Source of the DNA: a bacterium
Lineage (GTDB): Bacteria; Patescibacteriota; Microgenomatia; Daviesbacterales; UBA10151
Assembly (NCBI GenBank): GCA_021786105.1
Contig: JAJYNW010000009.1
Coordinates: 1-27,387, forward strand
Length of the DNA stretch: 27,387 bases
Direction of reading: 5' to 3'
The notes under the pieces were generated by a model. It was not told where the DNA came from. It made no database searches and worked only from the letters and a program-made list of their open reading frames with translations. Position 1 is the stretch's first letter, and every line of letters starts with the position of its first letter. Shown piece by piece: positions 1 to 19,542 of the stretch. Made by a program: the position numbers and the translations under genes.

Positions 1-84
1 AGTCCATCTTCCTTTCCGCAGCATACCCTCAAGCTGCTGCTTTTGCTGACTGTTAAGGGTAATGACCTGTATTTGGGCAGTCAT
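1..84 (-). CDS. N-terminus of probable IS630-family transposase (runs off window edge)
   Basis: ATG at 84 (minus) reads MTAQIQVITLNSQQKQQLEGMLRKGRWT..., resembling the 'I-x-L...LE...RKG' N-terminal HTH region of IS630 transposases; only 28 codons visible. Confidence 0.55.
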   Translation of the reverse strand, partial: MTAQIQVITLNSQQKQQLEGMLRKGRWT

Positions 85-126
85 ACCTTCAGTATCTTAC
101 ATTGGAATTAAGATATCAAGGTACTA
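1..126 (-). mobile_element. Left end of putative IS630-like element
   Basis: Minus strand reads CTAGTACCTTGATATCTTAATT... about 40 nt upstream of the ATG; TA (125-126) within CTAG matches the IS630 target preference. The other end is not in the window. Confidence 0.45.
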
Positions 127-179
127 GAGTTTATTAGAACCCTTCTTATGAATAACTATCATTATGGTTAAGGTCTTGT

Positions 180-433
180 TTACCTTGTTATCGCTAATTC
201 TGGTGGAATAATTCCAAGATGATTTTCAGCATTATGTTCAGCTTTCTCTTCGATTCCTTTCAAAACTTTTGTATGAGTGGTTAATGTTTCTTTTACATCT
301 TCCGTATTTTCAGTTAATCTAACTGTTTGATCCGTATATCTATCTTTTGTTCTAGATTGCCTAATTTTTCGTTAATCGGTTTTAGTTCTTCTTTAATTAC
401 TCCACGCAATTTATTTATATCTTCATCAATCAT
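180..433 (-). pseudogene. Frameshifted small coiled-coil hypothetical protein
   Basis: ATG 433: MIDEDINKLRGVIKEELKPINEKLGNLEQKID..., continuing in another frame as ..DQTVRLTENTEDVKETLTTHTKVLKGIEEKAEHNAENHLGIIPPELAITR* (stop 180-182); 254 nt is one base short of an intact frame. Confidence 0.55.
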
Positions 434-486
434 GGTTTTATCTTCTGAAAATTTTAACCAAATCTCAAGATATATCAAATATATCA

Positions 487-526
487 GTACCGCCAACGGC
501 AGATCATCCCCGTGGCGGACGACGAA
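487..526. repeat. Degenerate tRNA-end/att-like sequence with GC hairpin
   Basis: GTACCGCCAACGG...CCGTGGCGGA..CGAAC resembles GTACCGCCAGCGGGA...GGCGGA..CGAAC at 7388-7436. Confidence 0.45.
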
Positions 527-643
527 CACGGCATGGCTCAAGTAGTTATTTACCAACATAAAAAGCCTTTTATCTATCAAGATCAATTATTAAAACTCCA
601 AGAAGAAGCCAAGAAAAACAAAAGAGGATTGTGGGGAGTCTAA
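524..643 (+). pseudogene. C-terminal fragment of thermonuclease (SNase-like) gene
   Basis: EHGMAQVVIYQHKKPFIYQDQLLKLQEEAKKNKRGLWGV*; the 'G.A.V..Y...EEAK..KRGLW' SNase C-terminal signature; 5' part missing. Confidence 0.75.
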
Positions 644-648
644 AACTC

Positions 649-2994
649 TTATACAGTTAATACTGGTAATCGGCTATTTAGCCTTAGTTTTCTTTGCTCT
701 CGTGAATCAGCTTTAACTGTTGCTTGACCATATAATTGTGTTAAAGCTATTTCCGGAGTTAACCCTCTAACCTCCATTTCCTTTAGCAAAAGCGAGAACT
801 GATCAAATTTGATAGCTTCTTCATATATTTTATTATCCTGCACGATAATTTCCTTATCCTCTGAAGTTGCTTGCCTCTCGACTTCACGCGCCCATGCATC
901 AGCATATTTTTCAGAATTTCGCTCTCTGACTATTGTTGTAAAAATACCTTCTTCTTCGTTATCTCCATACTTCATATAATTAAGACTGTGTGCCTGACCA
1001 AACTCATTCACGCCTATCCGTTTCATATACCTTTCATAATCCTGCCAATTATCACCCAACTCTCTCCCTAATTCTGGGTAGGATACTCTTACTATATATT
1101 TAAATAATTCCTGCCAATCTTGTGCTCTAGCTACTTTTTCAATTTCACCCTTATTCTGTGCGTCAGCAATTTTAATTACCGAAGAAATTACTTCTTCAAA
1201 TTGACGAATATACTCCGATTGCTCTTCCGTCTCCTCCTCGTGTTCTAATTCCAAATTCCTGTCTTCTGATTGAAGATAAATACTTTCTGTAACTTTACCT
1301 CCAATTAATCCTGCTCTCAATTCCGCAACACCTTGCAAATCTCCCAATACATGCAATTCAGACTCTTGTGGTCTTACTTTAATATTGCTTTTTAATAAAT
1401 CTACTGCTCCTGAACTATTAGAGACAGTATTTACAAAAACATCAGCTAGTCTAATTCTTTCAGCCCATTGTTTTAAGAATCGTAAACCCCCTCTGATTTT
1501 ATCCACTGCCTTATCGTAATCTTCTATACCTTGACCTACTTCAAAAGAATCTACTACCAATGCTGGTTTTTCTCCCGACACAGCCAAAACTATTCCTAAT
1601 TTAGCTATTAGATGATTACCCTCATTAATTCTAAAAAAGTTAAATCCAGGGTTCGAAAGCCATATCGGAACAGTCCAGGCATTTATTCCTGTGTACAAAT
1701 GATAAGCTGTACAGTCTCCTGTTAAATCTCCTAAGAACAAATCTTCTCTTCGTCTCGATATCAAAGAGTAATCAGAAGCATGAGTGTCCAATTTAAAAAC
1801 ATTACCTAATTGTGCTGCCATTTCTCTTTTAGCAGAATATCTTTCATTAAATCTTTGTTCCGCTGTCTCCAAAAGGACTTCATCTCTTAAAGCATTTTCA
1901 AAAACATCAAATCCGCCTTCAAGTACCACACCGTTTTCTTTAAAGAAATTTGCAATCTGCCCTCTTAAAACTCTTTGAGCTTTACCTGATTTTGTTTTCG
2001 ATACCTCAATCAACTTTCTAAATCTTGCTACAATATCCGGAAATTCTCCTATACCACTTAATATGTCTTGCTGAGCAACTCTTGCGGTATGGATTACTTC
2101 GTCTGATAAAAAACGACTCCGTTCAATAGTCAATTCCTCCATTGCCAAACCAACTTCTGCTTGAAGCGCTTTTGCAAAATAAGGTCGCACGCTTTCCATC
2201 TCTGCTTGGCCTAATAGAGCCATACTTTCTACAACCTCATCCGGGTTACCAATATTCCAAAACCTTTCCAAAGCAATTCCATATGTAGCACAAAGAGTTC
2301 TAAAATTTGGAGTATGTTCCCATAAAGCAATTTTAAAAGTTTTTTGGCTTTTAGTTGTTGCCAAATATGCTTCATGCAGTTCTTTAATACCTGGATCAAA
2401 ATTTGAATTAAAATCAGGACGCTCTCTCCATCCCAATCTTACTTCGGGATTACCCAATAATTCCTCTGCTTGAAGATGAATACTTCTTACTACATTCCTC
2501 TTTTCTTCATCAATATACTGACGATCATCACCCTCAAATTTCCCCACCACATTATTCCACACGGAATTAACTCTTTCTCTAGTTTCTGCACCAGGTATTA
2601 AATACGGTCCAACTATAGTACCAGCATTTAATAATGCCGATATTGTTCCGTAAGGATCTGAATTTTCATTCTGAGATGAAATGATATCTATATAATCTTG
2701 AGTTAGACGGTCTCTCCTTATTTTCTCAAGATCCACAACTTGTAAAACCTCTAAGGCACAATCCCGACGGTCTTGATCCCATTGCTTATCATCTCTACTT
2801 AAACCATTCAGTAACGATCTTACGAGGCTTCTAGTTTCTACTCCATCAAAACTAGCTATTTCGGCAGAAGCATTATCTAAAATAAGTTCTTTTTCGTCTG
2901 ATCGAGAGAGCAATGTTTGAAGAGTACGCTTATTTCCAAATATACCCTCCAAAAACACGGTCGGACGATCTTTCGGTTTATCTAATTCTGGCAT
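649..2994 (-). CDS. Large hypothetical protein (781 aa), helical N-terminus, DLFLGDLTGDC motif followed by a beta-rich domain
   Basis: Long ORF with ATG start; no family recognised with confidence. Confidence 0.85.
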   Translation of the reverse strand: MPELDKPKDRPTVFLEGIFGNKRTLQTLLSRSDEKELILDNASAEIASFDGVETRSLVRSLLNGLSRDDKQWDQDRRDCALEVLQVVDLEKIRRDRLTQDYIDIISSQNENSDPYGTISALLNAGTIVGPYLIPGAETRERVNSVWNNVVGKFEGDDRQYIDEEKRNVVRSIHLQAEELLGNPEVRLGWRERPDFNSNFDPGIKELHEAYLATTKSQKTFKIALWEHTPNFRTLCATYGIALERFWNIGNPDEVVESMALLGQAEMESVRPYFAKALQAEVGLAMEELTIERSRFLSDEVIHTARVAQQDILSGIGEFPDIVARFRKLIEVSKTKSGKAQRVLRGQIANFFKENGVVLEGGFDVFENALRDEVLLETAEQRFNERYSAKREMAAQLGNVFKLDTHASDYSLISRRREDLFLGDLTGDCTAYHLYTGINAWTVPIWLSNPGFNFFRINEGNHLIAKLGIVLAVSGEKPALVVDSFEVGQGIEDYDKAVDKIRGGLRFLKQWAERIRLADVFVNTVSNSSGAVDLLKSNIKVRPQESELHVLGDLQGVAELRAGLIGGKVTESIYLQSEDRNLELEHEEETEEQSEYIRQFEEVISSVIKIADAQNKGEIEKVARAQDWQELFKYIVRVSYPELGRELGDNWQDYERYMKRIGVNEFGQAHSLNYMKYGDNEEEGIFTTIVRERNSEKYADAWAREVERQATSEDKEIIVQDNKIYEEAIKFDQFSLLLKEMEVRGLTPEIALTQLYGQATVKADSREQRKLRLNSRLPVLTV

Positions 2995-2996
2995 AA

Positions 2997-3848
2997 TTAT
3001 TTTTGGTTACCCGCTGTTATAATTTTATCCCCATGCATTCGGAGATATAAAGCACCTCTTGTTAATCTATCCAAAGGTACTGGTGGAACTGCAATCAACT
3101 CAAGTAAAGAATGTTTTGTAAAAGGATCATTATAATCTGGAAAGCCGGATTCTGCTTCATCAATGCTATGTCTACTTAACTTATTCATCACTCTCTTGGC
3201 TACTGAAAAAGCTAGGTGGAAAGTATTATACCCGCCGTTAAATACTGCCCACAGACTACCTGCGTTTAAAGCAACGCTTAATGGATCAGCTCCACTATTT
3301 ACAGCTGTTGCAACAATAGTAGGAATCAGAGTTAGATCAAACATTCCTAGAAAGCCATAGCTAGTAAGAGTCGATAAATTATATCTTCCATTATTAAGGA
3401 TTTTTTCATTTTTCAGACACTGAATAGAACCTCTTATGAGAGCATCACGAAAATCCTCAATAAATAAATCATCAAACTTTCTTCTCCCATCATTTGATCT
3501 TGCTACCTTATTAGCCAAAGCCTGATCATTTATAGCTACTAACCAAATATCATCTTCTTTTTTAATATCAACTATTCCATCTCCATGCCAAAGTTCCATC
3601 CTCGGCAAATTTAAAAATTTTCCCACTCTTACAAAACCAATTTCATCATAATCAAGAGCTCTATCTTGAGGTTTTTGGGTAACTACAATATCACTTCTCA
3701 TATCACTTACCCTCATAAAGCCATCCGCAACAGGATCATTTAAATGCATTAAGTCATGCCCAACCCCTCTATAACCATCTAGGGAAATTCTATGGGCGTG
3801 TTTAAATTCATATCCTTTGGGTTCAACATCCAACATACGAGGAGGCAT
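2997..3848 (-). CDS. Hypothetical protein with two hydrophobic segments (possible membrane protein)
   Basis: ORF 2997..3914; ATG at 3848 (MPPRM) preferred because the upstream part overlaps the small ORF 3880-4050. Confidence 0.8.
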   Translation of the reverse strand: MPPRMLDVEPKGYEFKHAHRISLDGYRGVGHDLMHLNDPVADGFMRVSDMRSDIVVTQKPQDRALDYDEIGFVRVGKFLNLPRMELWHGDGIVDIKKEDDIWLVAINDQALANKVARSNDGRRKFDDLFIEDFRDALIRGSIQCLKNEKILNNGRYNLSTLTSYGFLGMFDLTLIPTIVATAVNSGADPLSVALNAGSLWAVFNGGYNTFHLAFSVAKRVMNKLSRHSIDEAESGFPDYNDPFTKHSLLELIAVPPVPLDRLTRGALYLRMHGDKIITAGNQK

Positions 3849-3879
3849 TATACTAAAACTATGAGCTTTTATCAATTTT

Positions 3880-4050
3880 TCACAGAGACCTAGGAGGATT
3901 AACCGGAGTTTCAATACTTATCCAAATATCATCCTTTATACACCAGTAAACAATTCTGTTATATTCCTTCAAATCTTTACCACTTTTACCATTATTAGTT
4001 AGGGCTTCTAACTTTTTAAACATTTCCTGTTTACATTTTAGACATTTCAT
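3880..4050 (-). CDS. Small zinc-ribbon-like protein (56 aa), not in ORF track
   Basis: MKCLKCKQEMFKKLEALTNNGKSGKDLKEYNRIVYWCIKDDIWISIETPVNPPRSL*; CxxC...CxxD; starts 2 nt after the upstream gene's stop. Confidence 0.75.
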   Translation of the reverse strand: MKCLKCKQEMFKKLEALTNNGKSGKDLKEYNRIVYWCIKDDIWISIETPVNPPRSL

Positions 4051-4052
4051 AA

Positions 4053-4493
4053 TTATTTATTATATTCCTTAAGTTTTTCTTTTAAATCATGTAATTTCAT
4101 AACTTTTATATTTATGCCTTTAACATAAATTGTCCCAAAATTATTTAAATCAATATTATGTTTTCGAAAATAATATTCATAAGAATCAAAAGAAATATCA
4201 AACGGTTTATTATCCAAACCTCTATATATTATTGAGTTTGCATGAATTGAATATGGAGTTTTAATTGGATTGAAATTTAATGTTTTAATTGAAGAAATTA
4301 TCCTCTCGCAATCTTCTTCTTTTACTATCAAATCTATATCATGTGGTTGTATTTCTTTATTTCCATACAAAAGATCAGCTGTACTTCCATAAACTAAATA
4401 ATCAATATTTTCATTGTTTAGCAAATTACAAACTTCAGATAATAATTGTAAAATTCCTTCTTTAGTAATTTCTTTCACAATCAAATTGTACAT
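4053..4493 (-). CDS. Nucleotidyltransferase family protein (pol-beta superfamily)
   Basis: YLVYGSTA...PHDIDLIV = hG[GS]x(n)DhD motif. Confidence 0.8.
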   Translation of the reverse strand: MYNLIVKEITKEGILQLLSEVCNLLNNENIDYLVYGSTADLLYGNKEIQPHDIDLIVKEEDCERIISSIKTLNFNPIKTPYSIHANSIIYRGLDNKPFDISFDSYEYYFRKHNIDLNNFGTIYVKGINIKVMKLHDLKEKLKEYNK

Positions 4494-4531
4494 CTTTTAA
4501 ATCCTAATTTCTGCCTGATATACTTACTGTG

Positions 4532-4798
4532 ATGAAATTAATATTAATTGATGGTGGGCCGGCTTCGGGGAAAAATACTCTTGGAGCTTGACTGGTAGAT
4601 AAATTTCATAATATTGGGAATAAAGTTATTCTTTTAGATTTAGATAACTACGTCGAGAAATTTAATCCCAAGTGGATTTGGGAGAATAAACAACAAGAAG
4701 AAAAAGATCAATTAAATGCCAGGATAAATTTTATTAAGGATATTAGTAAATATCTTGAAGATGATTTTATTGTTATTGCCATTGGTGAAAGGTTTTGA
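4532..4798 (+). pseudogene. Disrupted P-loop kinase (AAA_33/shikimate-kinase-like)
   Basis: MKLILIDGGPASGKNTLGA*LVDKFH...LLDLDNY...IVIAIGERF*; Walker A GGPASGKNT, in-frame TGA at 4589-4591, truncated at 4798. Confidence 0.75.
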
Positions 4799-4849
4799 AA
4801 AACAAGTTTACACCCGGAGGGTGATTTAGCTTTACACCTTTTCTCTATA

Positions 4850-4865
4850 TACCGCGTACGGGAGT
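4850..4865 (-). repeat. Exact 16-bp duplicate of tRNA-Glu 3' end (att-like direct repeat)
   Basis: TACCGCGTACGGGAGT is identical to 7531-7546. Confidence 0.9.
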
Positions 4866-4985
4866 AAAAGCAGATCCACTTGAAACTTCGTTTCAATATG
4901 GCTCCTCTTGTATTACTCGCTACGCTCGTAATCGAACAGCTTGCTTCTTGGAGCGAAGCGCGCTGTTCCTTCCTTTAGCCGTTCA

Positions 4986-5027
4986 AGATACAAAAATCCC
5001 CGAACAAGTCGGGGGTGTTTTGTATCT
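4986..5027. terminator. Intrinsic-terminator-like hairpin directly before GTACC
   Basis: AGATACAAAA-ATCCCCGA-acaag-TCGGGGGT-GTTTTGTATCT inverted repeat. Confidence 0.7.
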
Positions 5028-5140
5028 GTACCCCAAATGTTTGAGAATTGGAATCAAATTCTGGCTAATTTGAGATCATGGAAGATACTCTTAGAAAATA
5101 GCTTTAGCTCAAACTTAGCAATTAACTACAGCAAGGGATT
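5028..5140 (+). repeat. Cassette-head repeat copy 1 (113 bp)
   Basis: GTACCCCAAATGTTTGAGAATTGGAATCAA...TTAACTAC....AGGGATT; reads VPQMFENWNQILANLRSWKILLENSFSSNLAINY. Confidence 0.95.
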
Positions 5141-5185
5141 GGAACATTTCTGTATTTTATAAGGCTTTTATGCTTAAATAAGCAT

Positions 5186-5869
5186 ATGGCTGAAGCTAAA
5201 GATTTAGGAGAAATAATTGAAGCTTCTTATACTTTCATTGATCATAACAGAAGTCATATTCCATATGGAAAAGGGATAACAGATCAACTAGCTTATGATT
5301 ATAGTAATAGATATAAATTGCCCTTAAGAATTGCGGTATCTGCTTTTAAATACTTAGAAGGACTTAATATGACAAAAGCGGATTATCAGGATAAATATAT
5401 TTTAGACGCAGGTTCTGGTTTAGGAGATTTTAAAAGAGCTCTGAAGGGCATGGGAGTAAAGGCAGAAGTTGTAAACCTTGATGATGCAAAAACATGGGGT
5501 ATATATAACACCGATGTTGTAGGTAAAGTAGAAGCTTTGCCTTTTGCTGATAATTCCTTTGATGTTGCTGTTCTCAATTATGTATTTCCCTTTGTTATAG
5601 ACGAAACTATTGATCCTAGTTACGCAGCTAATCAATTGCGTGAATTAATAAGAGTCACTAAAAAGGGCGGAATTATTAGATACCGTCCATTGAGAATGTT
5701 TGATCCGCAAGTCAGAGAAGGCTCTCAAAGAGTAATGATTGAAGTGACAAAGAGAGCATTAGAGGCTTTAGCAGAAATTTACCAACAAAACCCTGATATG
5801 AAAGTTCAAATTACACGGGCAATTGGTGATGATAACACTTACGATGAAATCCTTGAAATAGTAAAATAG
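5186..5869 (+). CDS. Class I SAM-dependent methyltransferase
   Basis: ILDAGSGLG motif I; LPFADNSFD; RVTKKGG. Confidence 0.9.
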   Translation: MAEAKDLGEIIEASYTFIDHNRSHIPYGKGITDQLAYDYSNRYKLPLRIAVSAFKYLEGLNMTKADYQDKYILDAGSGLGDFKRALKGMGVKAEVVNLDDAKTWGIYNTDVVGKVEALPFADNSFDVAVLNYVFPFVIDETIDPSYAANQLRELIRVTKKGGIIRYRPLRMFDPQVREGSQRVMIEVTKRALEALAEIYQQNPDMKVQITRAIGDDNTYDEILEIVK

Positions 5870-5888
5870 CTTGTTACAACAATCTAAA

Positions 5889-5999
5889 GTACCCCAAATG
5901 TTTGAGAATTGGAATCAATTTCTATACGTTACGCACATGGAAGACCTTACTTAATGGAAGCTTCACCCCAGCTTTAGTATTTAACTACCTCTAGGGATT
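5889..5999 (+). repeat. Cassette-head repeat copy 2 (111 bp, 2-nt deletion)
   Basis: First 30 nt identical to copy 1; reads VPQMFENWNQFL/frameshift/LRTWKTLLNGSFTPALVFNYL*. Confidence 0.95.
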
Positions 6000-6003
6000 A
6001 GAG

Positions 6004-6684
6004 CTACTGAGAAAGCCTATTAATTACTATCTCGTCAGGAGAAAGACCTTCTGTCTCAGATAAATAAACAATTATTTCAGCCACTTTTTTAGGATCCATG
6101 TAAGAAGAAGTGTCGGGTGGTGTTTCAAGTGCGTCATACAAAGGTGTATTAATTCCTCCAGGATGAATGCTTAAAACTCTAATACCATGTTGTTTTGCTT
6201 CCAAACGAAGGCTTTGAGTAAAACCATTAAGCCCGAATTTAGTAGCAGCGTATAGAGTAAAATTAGCCCTACCTTCTTTTCCTACATTAGAATTTATATT
6301 AATAATAGTGCCATTTTTTTGTGAAACCATTAAAGAATAAAGTTTTTGCGTGAGAATCATTGGTGCTTTCAGATTTATTTCTAAAATTTTATTCAGTTGC
6401 TCAGGAGTATTTTTCTCAAATGGTTGGATATAAGTTATTCCGGCGTTATTAATCAAAATATCAACTTGGCCCAAACTATTAACTGCATCACTAGTTTTCT
6501 CAATTATTTCCTGTTTTGTTAAATCCCCTTCAATAATTTCAACATTCTCTTTATCCTGAAATTCTTGGAACCCTTCTGAGTTTAATCCATTTAAGACAAG
6601 TCTATAATTCTTTTCTAAGTACGCTCTAGCTAGTTCCTTTCCTAGTCCACTTGAAGCACCTGTAATTACAACTACTTTATTCAT
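6004..6684 (-). CDS. Short-chain dehydrogenase/reductase (SDR)
   Basis: TGASSGLG, NNAG, YAATK catalytic motif. Confidence 0.95.
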   Translation of the reverse strand: MNKVVVITGASSGLGKELARAYLEKNYRLVLNGLNSEGFQEFQDKENVEIIEGDLTKQEIIEKTSDAVNSLGQVDILINNAGITYIQPFEKNTPEQLNKILEINLKAPMILTQKLYSLMVSQKNGTIININSNVGKEGRANFTLYAATKFGLNGFTQSLRLEAKQHGIRVLSIHPGGINTPLYDALETPPDTSSYMDPKKVAEIIVYLSETEGLSPDEIVINRLSQ

Positions 6685-6784
6685 AAAATGGATTATCTAA
6701 GAAGATTATACACAAATATTTATTGGAACCAAAATAGCCTCAATTTTGAAGTATTAAACACATTGGGTATAAAATCTGAAGCTA

Positions 6785-6897
6785 GTACCCCAAATGTTTC
6801 AGAATTGGAATCAAATTCTGAGTTCATTAAGGACATGGAAGATTCTTTTAGAAAATAGCTTCACACCAAACTTGGCCGTTAACTACCTCTAGGGATT
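6785..6897 (+). repeat. Cassette-head repeat copy 3 (113 bp)
   Basis: Reads VPQMFQNWNQILSSLRTWKILLENSFTPNLAVNYL* (TAG 6890-6892). Confidence 0.95.
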
Positions 6898-6919
6898 AGA
6901 ACTGTGATATATTCATCTT

Positions 6920-7357
6920 ATGATTTACGTTGCCGGGGATAAACATGGTTTTAACGCCATTAAGATAGTTATCGATTATTTGGAAAAGCATGGTATTAAA
7001 TACGAGAATTTAGGCATACAAAACCAAAGCGAAGATATTAAGCTAGAAGATATGATCCCATCAGTGGTAAATATGGTTCTGGGAAACAAAAATAGTCAGG
7101 CAATTATTTCTTGCGGTACAGGAATTGGAGTTGAGGTAGGCGTTAATAAGTTTAGTGGAATTAGGGCTTGTCTTGCCACAAATGAAAAAGTTGCTGAATG
7201 GGCTAGAGTTTATGATAACTGCAATACTTTATGTCTTGTTGGTTGGGACTGCGACAAAAACGAAGTATTTAAAATCCTCGATGCTTGGTTTAGAGCAGAG
7301 TATGATGGTAGTAAAGATAGACTAAAAATGTTCGAAGAATTTAACAAATGGCATTAA
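6920..7357 (+). CDS. rpiB: RpiB/LacA/LacB family sugar-phosphate isomerase
   Basis: AGDKHG, CGTGIG, NKFSGIRA, N-x-N-x-L-C-L motifs. Confidence 0.85.
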   Translation: MIYVAGDKHGFNAIKIVIDYLEKHGIKYENLGIQNQSEDIKLEDMIPSVVNMVLGNKNSQAIISCGTGIGVEVGVNKFSGIRACLATNEKVAEWARVYDNCNTLCLVGWDCDKNEVFKILDAWFRAEYDGSKDRLKMFEEFNKWH

Positions 7358-7387
7358 TTCTACTTTAGAGCAAAACATCAGTCTAAA

Positions 7388-7529
7388 GTACCGCCAGCGG
7401 GATAATCACGTATCCGCCAAAGGCGGATTAACGAACAGTCTTGTCCATAACTTCGTCAGGACTACGCAGTCCTATCCCTTTCGGTGCAAAAACAAAAACG
7501 CTCCGGATGAACCAGAGCTTTTTTTGTTT
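7388..7529. repeat. Non-coding hairpin-rich module B2
   Basis: Starts GTACCGCCAGCGGGA (degenerate tRNA end), has ATCCGCC-aaa-GGCGGAT and AGGACT-acgc-AGTCCT palindromes, ends in a hairpin abutting the tRNA. Confidence 0.65.
7490..7529 (-). terminator. Terminator-like hairpin downstream of tRNA-Glu
   Basis: AAACAAAAA-c-GCTC..GAGC-TTTTTTTGTTT inverted repeat with A/T tracts. Confidence 0.65.
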
Positions 7530-7530
7530 G

Positions 7531-7604
7531 TACCGCGTACGGGAGTCGAACCCGTGATTTCTGGGATGAAAACCCAACGTCCTAGGCCACTAGACGAACG
7601 CGGC
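7531..7604 (-). tRNA. tRNA-Glu (TTC), CCA not encoded
   Basis: GCCGCGTTCGTCTAGTGGCCTAGGACGTTGGGTTTTCATCCCAGAAATCACGGGTTCGACTCCCGTACGCGGTA folds as a cloverleaf; anticodon TTC. Confidence 0.97.
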
Positions 7605-7614
7605 AAACCCTAAA

Positions 7615-7643
7615 ATTATACCGGAATTAGGCTCACTACTCAA
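7615..7643 (-). promoter_or_regulatory. Sigma70-type promoter of tRNA-Glu
   Basis: TTGAGT-N17-TATAAT, 10 nt upstream of the tRNA 5' end. Confidence 0.7.
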
Positions 7644-7660
7644 GACGAGCTTTCATTCAG

Positions 7661-7697
7661 CCCATAGTTTGATTTTCTACTCCAAATGTGATATATT
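7661..7697 (+). promoter_or_regulatory. Promoter with CCCATAGT motif abutting -35
   Basis: CCCATAGT-TTGATT-N17-TATATT-N7-ATG. Confidence 0.6.
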
Positions 7698-7704
7698 ATA
7701 AGAT

Positions 7705-7992
7705 ATGTTCGAAGGCAGACAAGAATTAGATCAGGAACAATATATTAACCGTTTCCGAGAGGCTCCTTATGGAGAAGCTTTAGAAATGCCTTTATCCACT
7801 CTTACGCCTACCCAAACCCCCGATGGACAATACTCTTTATCCAAGGGTGCTATCCAGGCTTGTTACGACAAAAGCAGTATCTTAGTTGTACACGGGAATC
7901 ATCGGTATTTTGATGCACTTAGTACAGTAGGTTCTGAAAAGCAAGCACTTATTTTAACTGAGAAGGTTAAAAATCCATACCTCGATTATTAA
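7705..7992 (+). CDS. Small hypothetical protein, possible ParB/Srx-like fold
   Basis: LSTLTPTQ...ILVVHGNHRY resembles the ParB-N 'DGxHR' motif. Confidence 0.65.
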   Translation: MFEGRQELDQEQYINRFREAPYGEALEMPLSTLTPTQTPDGQYSLSKGAIQACYDKSSILVVHGNHRYFDALSTVGSEKQALILTEKVKNPYLDY

Positions 7993-8056
7993 ATACTAAT
8001 TTATTACCTGGCGAAGCAAGCAAACCTAATGAATTATTTGGAAGCAGGCTTCTTTT

Positions 8057-8554
8057 TCAAGGCTGACGGCATTTCAATGGACGAAAGGTTGCAGTCGAAG
8101 CTATAGTAGGCTCTGTCCAATCAGCATTTACTTTATCTAAACTTACCCAATCTATCTCTTCAGGGCTCGAATCCGATTCATTTGTCCCATACTCATTATG
8201 AATTCCATTAGAAGATACTCTTGCTAACTCCCGCAACCGACCGCCATTAGGATACCTTCCACTACCTCTAACGTGATGATCCTTTTTTAAGGTAATTCTT
8301 CCATCTACGCTAATCCTTTCCCAATAACCTTCTTCCACCTCAGCACAAATCCTTCTCCTGGGGTCTTGAACAAATTTTATAGTTTGTCTTTGCAATTCCG
8401 GCAAACGTACTACACCATTCCCGGAACCATTGGAAGCAGTCTCCTCTAACCCACAGGGGTCAATTATGCCATCAACAACACCTTTTTCTAAACGAACATC
8501 CGGCGTTACGGGGTACGAAACAAGCTGCGCTTTAAAACTTTCAATCTCTAGCAT
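8057..8554 (-). CDS. Hypothetical protein
   Basis: 165-aa ORF filling the gap; TTGACA-N17-TAATAC promoter-like sequence upstream. Confidence 0.65.
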   Translation of the reverse strand: MLEIESFKAQLVSYPVTPDVRLEKGVVDGIIDPCGLEETASNGSGNGVVRLPELQRQTIKFVQDPRRRICAEVEEGYWERISVDGRITLKKDHHVRGSGRYPNGGRLRELARVSSNGIHNEYGTNESDSSPEEIDWVSLDKVNADWTEPTIASTATFRPLKCRQP

Positions 8555-18442: not shown

Positions 18443-18748
18443 TTAAGCACTACCTTCTACTTCCTCAAAAACTCCTTTTGTCACAAAAAATCCGTTTTCC
18501 TTTTTTGGGGCATTCTGCAAAGCTTCATCCTGAGATAGACTGGGGGCAGTTTCATCTTCCCGCATGACATTACTTTGTCCGGAAACATTAAAGGTTGGTT
18601 CTACATTGGAGGTATCTACTTGATTTAATTGATCTATATAATCCAAGACCTTGGAGAGTTGTTCAGAATATCTCTCTTCTTCTTCAGTAGTAAGCGGTAA
18701 ATTAGCCAACTTGGCTACATGCTTAACCTGATCCTTAGTAAGTTTCAT
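18443..18748 (-). CDS. gatC: Asp/Glu-tRNA amidotransferase subunit C
   Basis: VKHVAKLANL...L.QVDT.NVEPT...MREDE...AL.NAP. Confidence 0.95.
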   Translation of the reverse strand: MKLTKDQVKHVAKLANLPLTTEEEERYSEQLSKVLDYIDQLNQVDTSNVEPTFNVSGQSNVMREDETAPSLSQDEALQNAPKKENGFFVTKGVFEEVEGSA

Positions 18749-18750
18749 AT

Positions 18751-19436: not shown

Positions 19437-19487
19437 CAAATTAGCCAATTTAGCCACATGTTTAACTTGATCCTTAGTTAGCTTCAT
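19437..19487 (-). pseudogene. Duplicated 5' end of gatC (17 codons)
   Basis: MKLTKDQVKHVAKLANL is identical to gatC residues 1-17; 8 third-position differences in 51 nt; frame ends at 19398. Confidence 0.92.
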
Positions 19488-19542
19488 ATGAATTTGATTA
19501 TACTTTACCTACTGTAAGCTTGACAATGAATAGAAAATACAA

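Follow-up and report, generated by a model that had tools for sequence, protein, structure and literature searches.

Single-gene units stacked at a tRNA-Glu 3' end in a relative of Candidatus Daviesbacteria probably descend from serine recombinase elements whose recombinase gene is split on integration

We analysed a 27,387-nt stretch of DNA (the window; contig JAJYNW010000009.1 of assembly GCA_021786105.1, here contig C9) from a tiny, groundwater-type bacterium of the Candidate Phyla Radiation (CPR), whose genome assembly comprises 1.04 Mb in 26 contigs and is 92% complete. Between a tRNA-Glu gene and a displaced copy of its 3' end lie three small units (Table 1), each consisting of a direct repeat of ~117 nt that opens with the terminal letters of the tRNA (the head), a single cargo gene and a short end sequence, and the evidence presented here suggests that this repeat represents the 3' end of a large serine recombinase (LSR) gene, cut off from the remainder. 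The exact 16-nt direct repeat pairs position 4850 with position 7531, so that a displaced tDNA fragment accompanies the intact tDNA, as in Islander-type islands. The heads are spaced 861 and 896 nt apart and have a left edge that is sharp at GTACC in all three copies; likeness is 97% over the first 35 nt and, between copies 1 and 3, 79% over 129 nt. By Pfam there is one gene per interval, and the three are mutually unrelated; the genome has a second, distant RpiB/LacAB copy on contig C26. By eye, each cargo gene seems to have a -10-like box of its own shortly after the head, where a consensus scan listed none. Neither an LSR gene (open reading frames (ORFs) and Pfam, 4850-7604) nor a tyrosine integrase (ORFs, Pfam and a PF00589 search of the whole genome) was found on board. 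A preliminary description of this DNA had proposed an integron-like array of gene cassettes, and the features on which it drew (the tRNA-Glu, the 16-nt copy, three GTACC-headed repeats with one unrelated gene each and two unit ends that are alike) are all where it had placed them. GTACC is found additionally at 7388 and 7530; with 24 occurrences in the window, compared to 19.8 ± 5.4 in shuffled sequences, the motif is not enriched; only its placement at repeat edges carries meaning. The G+C content of the units is 33-35%, compared to 39.6% in the right flank.

Repeats often cause misjoins, and Logan contigs do break at the heads, which raises the question of an assembly artefact. Contigs from other samples nevertheless extend across heads 2 and 3, are anchored in unique sequence to either side and show no differences (run X4 spans 5098-6673 and run X5 spans 6157-7803; 4762-5116 and 5027-5612 are covered too), so the order of the array is real. 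A recent tandem duplication would not account for three unrelated cargo genes, and either origin is in our judgement extremely improbable. No further copy of the repeat was detected in the 1.04-Mb genome by blastn, and the idea of a scattered miniature inverted-repeat transposable element was rejected on these grounds. Joints expected from excision or circles of this strain were not seen in the assembled contigs (as distinct from raw reads) of runs X4-X7; a single joint of 4880 to 6784 (run X6, side 31, one contig) derives from a relative at less than 95% likeness.

Table 1. Features of the tRNA-Glu island, and the two LSR genes found on other contigs of the genome.
Feature	Position	Strand	Basis and remarks
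Displaced exact 16-nt copy of the tRNA-Glu 3' end	4850-4865	+	Repeat search and blastn; outer direct repeat of the 2.7-kb island
Seg A: conserved spacer running up to the first GTACC; contains hairpins and, at 4996-5016, a two-way terminator	4866-5027		Terminator scan
Head 1: core GTACC (5028-5032) and putative LSR-tail coding remnant	5028-5145	+	Frame from 5028, ATG at 5037, open to 5162
Cargo 1: class I S-adenosylmethionine-dependent methyltransferase, 227 aa	5186-5869	+	Pfam Methyltransf_11, E 3.6e-10
Unit 1 end: short imperfect palindrome against the next core	5870-5888	+	Likely remnant of the last LSR codons (P arm)
Head 2: core and putative tail remnant, frameshifted	5889-6004	+	Only profile positions 11-32 matched
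Cargo 2: short-chain dehydrogenase/reductase, 226 aa, inverted relative to its head	6004-6684	-	Pfam adh_short, E 5.2e-52
Head 3: core and intact 32-codon putative tail frame	6785-6902	+	ATG at 6794, stop 6890-6892; profile E 2.0e-20
Cargo 3: RpiB/LacAB-type sugar-phosphate isomerase, 145 aa	6920-7357	+	Pfam LacAB_rpiB, E 1.2e-26
Unit 3 end: P-arm-like putative remnant against GTACC at 7388	7358-7387	+
Diverged copy (12/16) of a tRNA-Glu 3' end	7388-7403	+	Agrees with a variant form of tRNA-Glu found in other lineages
Seg B: second member of the Seg family	7404-7529		Contains the tRNA-Glu terminator (7518-7500, minus strand)
tRNA-Glu(TTC), attachment target	7530-7604	-	ARAGORN; Rfam tRNA, 59.3 bits; last nucleotides are the shared core
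LSR gene	C17:56701-58280		Antisense into tRNA-Asn, 11 codons
LSR gene	C14:63161-64767		Antisense into tRNA-Gly, 7 codons

Read in the frame of the core GTA, the repeat encodes a conserved peptide of ~32 residues with a fixed stop, followed by a dozen conserved nucleotides. For the 20 gap-free copies among 37 aligned, the ratio of non-synonymous to synonymous polymorphism (pN/pS) is 0.51 in this frame, compared to 0.97 and 1.20 in the other two; third codon positions are the most variable, and stops are present in 5 of the 20 copies, as against 20 and 19 in the other frames. Most heads have an ATG 9 nt past the core and a stop at one fixed place, while the frame common to heads 1 and 3 of the window is broken in head 2 by a 2-nt deletion. 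An integron-type system, in which a tyrosine recombinase would act on the repeat as a folded attC-like site, would be in keeping with arrayed one-gene units and with the short palindrome at the unit ends. It is difficult to reconcile with a repeat that has a coding signal, folds no better than its shuffles and has no Rfam match (none in 4850-7529 at E up to 1, a threshold at which the rest of the window gives two tRNAs and two weak chance matches), or with the PF00589 search of the whole genome, which returned two matches, on contigs C12 and C15, and none on C9. We give this explanation next to no credence, and the earlier proposal of an integron analogue was overstated: rather than a new attC-like site, the repeat is on our reading an LSR gene 3' end cut off by integration, for which intact parents exist in other organisms.

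Three other candidates for the nature of the repeat were considered and rejected: a structured RNA or attC-like fold (folding z of -1.0 to +0.5 relative to shuffles, both strands, three copies), a decayed tRNA copy (alignment beyond the core to tRNA-Arg and tRNA-Glu, z -0.2 and 1.3 relative to shuffles) and the N-terminus of a long gene (no stop-to-stop frame of more than 88 aa holds the peptide in 71 copies). Some heads (in L016, L018, L044 and L046, at 17417-17484 of L071 from genome G013, and in L094) contain an insertion of 25-28 nt that forms a hairpin with a co-varying stem. There are also short heads, which retain just the first ~19 nt, the hairpin insertion and the last ~24 nt; as these keep both ends, the ends of the head seem to matter as DNA or RNA apart from coding.

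The distribution of the repeat was assessed in 96 genomes from 63 genera of the same family, in which relatives bear the name Candidatus Daviesbacteria. A profile search found the peptide, hereafter the tail, in 28 of the 96 genomes and 15 of the 63 genera, at 1-3 copies each and within frames of 24-88 aa, and copies are also present in Levyibacteriota and Doudnabacteria records. At 22 of 28 family head loci identified by nhmmer, a tRNA-Glu (12) or a tRNA-Arg(TCT) (10) lies 0.2-3.8 kb downstream on the opposite strand, with the head reading towards the tRNA in a convergent arrangement; the remaining six are on short contigs or have no such tRNA in the fetched stretch. True heads are held by 18 of the 80 listed metagenome loci obtained with a 16-base pattern, and all seven of these that have a tRNA have tRNA-Glu in the same arrangement. 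The repeat is thus tied to tRNA ends, as the preliminary description had supposed, but is not specific to tRNA-Glu, since at 10 of these 22 loci tRNA-Arg(TCT) takes its place. The opening letters of each head vary in step with the tRNA end nearby, the core variants tracking those of tRNA-Arg and tRNA-Glu; the letters shared number 5 for tRNA-Glu and 7 for tRNA-Arg(TCT), a short common core as expected of an LSR element. While the 5' side of the tRNA-Glu is syntenic across the genus, its 3' side differs in every genome: none of 40 relatives has the three genes of the window at this place, and others stand there instead, in agreement with the earlier view of discrete, recombinase-less units joined at the terminal nucleotides of the tRNA. 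Elsewhere, units carry between one and three genes behind the head, the products of which include a zeta-type kinase, C39 and S51 peptidases, and GNAT, GrpB, HAD, SLOG and PIN proteins.

A scan of all fetched loci for frames running into tRNA ends found three independent loci: L136, L078 and L060 (L136 is identical to L157 and L060 to L161, and each pair was counted once). Their LSRs, of 505-525 aa and mutually 35-59% identical, contain the Pfam Resolvase and Recombinase domains, with Zn_ribbon_recom as well in L078 and L060, and cross the tRNA-Glu core with GTA in frame. In each case a head is found at the far border, 4-6 kb off, starting with the local version of the core, and the heads of L078 and L060 have no ATG of their own. 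If the two borders of each element are joined, as they would be by excision, the peptide continues the reading frame of the LSR. In a full HMMER search of 1.84 billion proteins, a profile built from 23 tails gave 22 matches, of which four are long repetitive proteins that match only part of the profile and 18 are 31-166 aa long; the latter are mostly short called ORFs, with the addition of two fusions, P0020 and P0004. In P0020, a stretch of 132 residues sharing 55-69% identity with the C-terminal ends of five full LSRs leads in frame into the tail, and in P0004 the tail follows ~35 LSR C-terminal residues. In the alignment, the likeness to the integrated LSRs stops exactly at the core, from which point the integrated LSRs continue with tRNA-antisense residues. 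Taken together, the in-frame LSRs at tRNA-Glu, the heads at the far borders and the two fusions place the attachment site inside the LSR gene, and the fusions and the frame agreement in L136, L078 and L060 mark the heads as derived from LSR elements.

The reading we favour, to which we would assign a probability of about three in four, is that the units of the window are recombinase-less miniatures of LSR elements inserted at tRNA ends, and that the repeat is the severed tail of the LSR gene. In intact elements of 4-6 kb, the LSR would insert at the 3' end of tRNA-Glu or tRNA-Arg(TCT), using an attachment site that appears to sit within its own gene, ~35 codons ahead of the stop, so that integration would split the gene. 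The body of the LSR gene would then stay beside the tRNA and read into it antisense, while its last ~35 codons would land at the far border, directly past the 5-7-nt core common with the tRNA, within which the crossover would fall. Each unit of the window would retain this far border (core and tail), one cargo gene and 19-30 nt of sequence resembling the end of an LSR gene, the body of the LSR having been lost.

The other half of the attachment site would lie in the unit ends, which we infer, from short similarities, to be leftovers of the LSR gene 3' end. The 19-30 nt that precede the following core constitute a short imperfect palindrome, and their core-proximal 7-8 nt reappear at unit ends and tRNA junctions of relatives and resemble the last codons of the L060 and L078 LSR genes. 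The 7-mer at 5881-5887, with one mismatch allowed, precedes 13 of 34 head cores at a distance of no more than 35 nt, and likewise 6/16 and 11/31 tRNA-Glu/Arg junctions, compared to 8.4% of random windows. Both halves of an attachment site (core plus head, and P-arm-like end plus core) seem to flank units 1 and 3, the end of unit 2 being degenerate.

Several observations weigh against this reading. The unsplit gene is represented by two database proteins, P0020 and P0004, known as protein sequence only, and P0020 begins with a methionine inside the LSR, so that it may be a remnant rather than a fragment from a contig edge. No frame of more than 88 aa contains the tail among the 71 copies, a word-indexed search returned no longer proteins carrying it, and a scan of viral contigs with P0020 gave no relative. 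The likeness of the unit ends to LSR 3' ends amounts to 8-25 nt and a 4.5-fold motif enrichment, with no full alignment. The two LSRs of this genome are just 26-34% identical to those of the parent elements, and an intact element of the parent type is absent from the 92%-complete assembly. To our knowledge, canonical LSRs do not recombine attP with attR, as tandem growth at a tRNA end would need. Finally, since most heads carry an ATG of their own, a free-standing product of 32 aa is conceivable.

Under this last alternative, the heads would encode a small protein or leader that travels with the cargo, for example a tiny directionality or expression factor, and the match to the LSR frame would be secondary. 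The fixed stop, the confinement of all copies to short frames, the retention of both head ends in short forms and the fact that 18 of the 22 database matches, P0020 included, are called ORFs of 31-166 aa would all suit such a product. It is harder to see why the heads of L078, L060 and the tRNA-Arg group should lack an ATG and yet be open in frame from the core, why stops should occur in 5 of 20 copies and a frameshift in copy 2 of the window, and why P0020 and P0004 should fuse the peptide to an LSR C-terminus. We consider a free-standing product improbable as the primary explanation.

Comparisons between relatives indicate how the arrays grow. In G012, a homologue of 4811-5027 stands directly against the tRNA-Glu and the 2.5 kb from 5028 to 7529 are missing. 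G013 and G007 have flanks that are 94% identical, and in G013 a 16.3-kb LSR element separates the tRNA from an older unit, which in the sister genome G007 stands against the tRNA region. G011 and L094 share their distal GrpB/GNAT units (86.8% identity over 1025 nt); their homology reaches 15 nt into the following head and no further, and the units nearer the tRNA are different. In L136, an LSR-less peptidase unit lies distal to the intact element. New DNA therefore enters at the tRNA-proximal core, older units being pushed outward, and units pile up as a result; the breakpoints of the first three comparisons fall at the core, where the preliminary description had expected them. A different explanation without any site-specific step, reportedly proposed for the minimal mobile elements of Neisseria, is that the tRNA and the head serve as anchors between which DNA is swapped by homologous recombination after uptake. 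Heads that are 79-97% alike within the window, and anchors that persist while cargo varies between genomes, are compatible with such swapping, which leaves unexplained why heads start exactly with the terminal letters of the tRNA and co-vary with its type, why 16-18-nt tRNA-end copies are present and why LSR genes read through the same core; we regard it as very improbable.

The 16.3-kb element of G013, a congener, belongs to a second family. Its 561-aa LSR also reads antisense into and through the tRNA-Glu with the core GTA in frame, and its far border is an 18-nt copy of the tRNA end with no head, for which reason it was rejected as a parent of the units; it is this family that fits the 16-nt repeat at 4850 and the Seg segments of the window. 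Homologues of these segments are found between a tRNA-end copy and tRNA-Glu in G012, G001 and G007.

How the recombinase-less units of our preferred reading arrived is less certain. Each may be what is left of a complete element after loss of its LSR, or may have entered already without one, as a circle mobilised by an LSR working in trans. Retained ends that are compact, and close to the size of a minimal LSR attachment site, argue for mobility, while frameshifted and stop-bearing tails and the lack of a cognate LSR in this genome argue against it, and on balance we are doubtful that units are still moved in trans. The preliminary description had suggested that a recombinase might be encoded elsewhere in the genome; two LSRs are indeed present, at tRNA-Asn and tRNA-Gly (Table 1), but neither is a close relative of the parent recombinases, which makes the units of the window orphans in this 92%-complete assembly. 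A more elaborate scheme, which we think unlikely, would be a CPR serine recombinase cassette system, in which LSRs of passing elements capture, stack and release minimal one-gene units in trans at tRNA-Glu and tRNA-Arg ends, the attachment site of each unit being reduced to ~20-30 nt from the end of the LSR gene together with the core and the severed tail, and in which the exchange of tails (the element's own peptide when free, tRNA-antisense residues when integrated) acts as a direction switch.

Parallels to this arrangement exist in several known systems. Work on the ICESt elements of Streptococcus is said to have described cis-mobilisable elements (CIMEs) and the tandem accretion of integrative elements at one attachment site. 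Like CIMEs, the units are flanked by attachment-site halves, lack a recombinase of their own, would derive from autonomous elements that lost their recombination module, and form tandem stacks, either alone or together with an intact element (as in L136); unlike CIMEs, they involve a serine rather than a tyrosine recombinase, measure 0.6-0.9 kb with one gene, reside in a CPR host and retain as their border a piece of the recombinase gene itself. The integrase genes of phage Mx8 (intP/intX) and of the fusellovirus SSV extend across attP (PMC4383910; for Mx8 also PMC6070905), and on integration the Mx8 integrase gene acquires a different 3' end, with a change in its specificity (PMC6070905). Here too, an attP inside the integrase gene would mean that integration at a tRNA gene alters or splits that gene; the Mx8 and SSV enzymes are tyrosine recombinases, in contrast to the LSRs in question, whose severed tail survives as a conserved, repeated orphan.

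With an intact tRNA and an exact 16-nt displaced 3' fragment bounding 2.7 kb, the locus resembles the tRNA islands detected by Islander, from which it differs in having no integrase inside. The 2014 Islander paper describes serine integrases as not known to target tRNA genes (PMC4383910), whereas in this family, where 58 of 96 genomes have LSR homologues, the LSR frame enters the 3' end of a tRNA gene at 26 of the best 40 loci; ten kinds of tRNA are concerned, with Gly, Glu, Leu, Phe, Arg, His, Lys, Gln and Asn among them. Integrons share with our locus the one-sided array of small, mostly one-gene units and the entry of new units at a fixed end, but here IntI, an attC fold and a common promoter are all missing, and one of the three cargo genes has the reverse orientation. 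The intact L078 and L060 parents are reminiscent of phage satellites, of the kind of phage-inducible chromosomal islands (PICIs): their elements of 4.6-5.8 kb at the attachment site combine an integrase with a homologue of the small terminase (Terminase_2). In contrast to PICI-type satellites, they have no known helper phage, packaging site or induction, and L136 has no terminase match. One of the L078 and L060 elements also encodes a protein with a SocA/Panacea antitoxin domain. We found no description of tRNA-directed LSRs with a split gene in CPR bacteria in the literature, which is weak evidence of novelty.

CPR genomes are ~1 Mb in size and their acquisition of genes is poorly understood; the locus offers a concrete route, in which small LSR-driven elements at tRNA 3' ends would leave behind compact one-gene units that accumulate in arrays. 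Should the minimal units still be competent for recombination, they would provide short natural attachment sites together with a family of tRNA-directed LSRs. If, moreover, tail exchange alters LSR activity, it would constitute a new way of controlling direction in serine integrases, in parallel to the tyrosine integrase of Mx8.

The remaining sequence of the island is made up of Seg segments and tRNA-end copies. Members of the Seg family (also present in L016, L018 and L020) are 125-185 nt long and always lie between a 16-nt tRNA-end copy and tRNA-Glu; their hairpins show compensatory changes, they include a two-way terminator, and Rfam has no match for them. Possible interpretations are a small RNA and a miniature remnant of G013-type LSR elements. 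A variant tRNA-Glu end like the diverged copy at 7388 is present in a contig of run X7 (place 7541) and in L136, and this correspondence with the tRNA-Glu of other lineages points to assembly in a different host, at least for unit 3 and Seg B.

Beyond the outer repeat, the whole left flank (1-4849, 34% G+C) has no counterpart at the same locus in relatives; it contains a nucleotidyltransferase-like gene (4053-4493) and probably represents island DNA of greater age. At the island border, a P-loop kinase-like ORF (4532-4868, plus strand; KTI12/APS-kinase in Pfam), which is interrupted by two in-frame TGA codons and extends into the 16-nt copy of the tRNA end, is probably a pseudogene; an intact-looking relative is found in G005 (L023, 5601-5876; 74% over 92 aa). 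Overlapping it at 4805-4849 is a motif of 38-47 nt with a small hairpin (4811-4823), terminator-like by scan, that occurs on many contigs across the genus, for example at six places in G012 and five in G019, and in this genome also at two others (C14:12168 and C21:62384). On the other side of the tRNA-Glu, two ORFs of 95 and 165 aa without a Pfam match (7705-8554) separate it from a NUDIX gene and represent an insertion on the tRNA 5' side, since in relatives the tRNA lies within 50-500 nt of NUDIX. Further along the window, a 52-nt direct repeat of 87% identity is found at 18699-18750 and 19438-19489, 739 nt apart.

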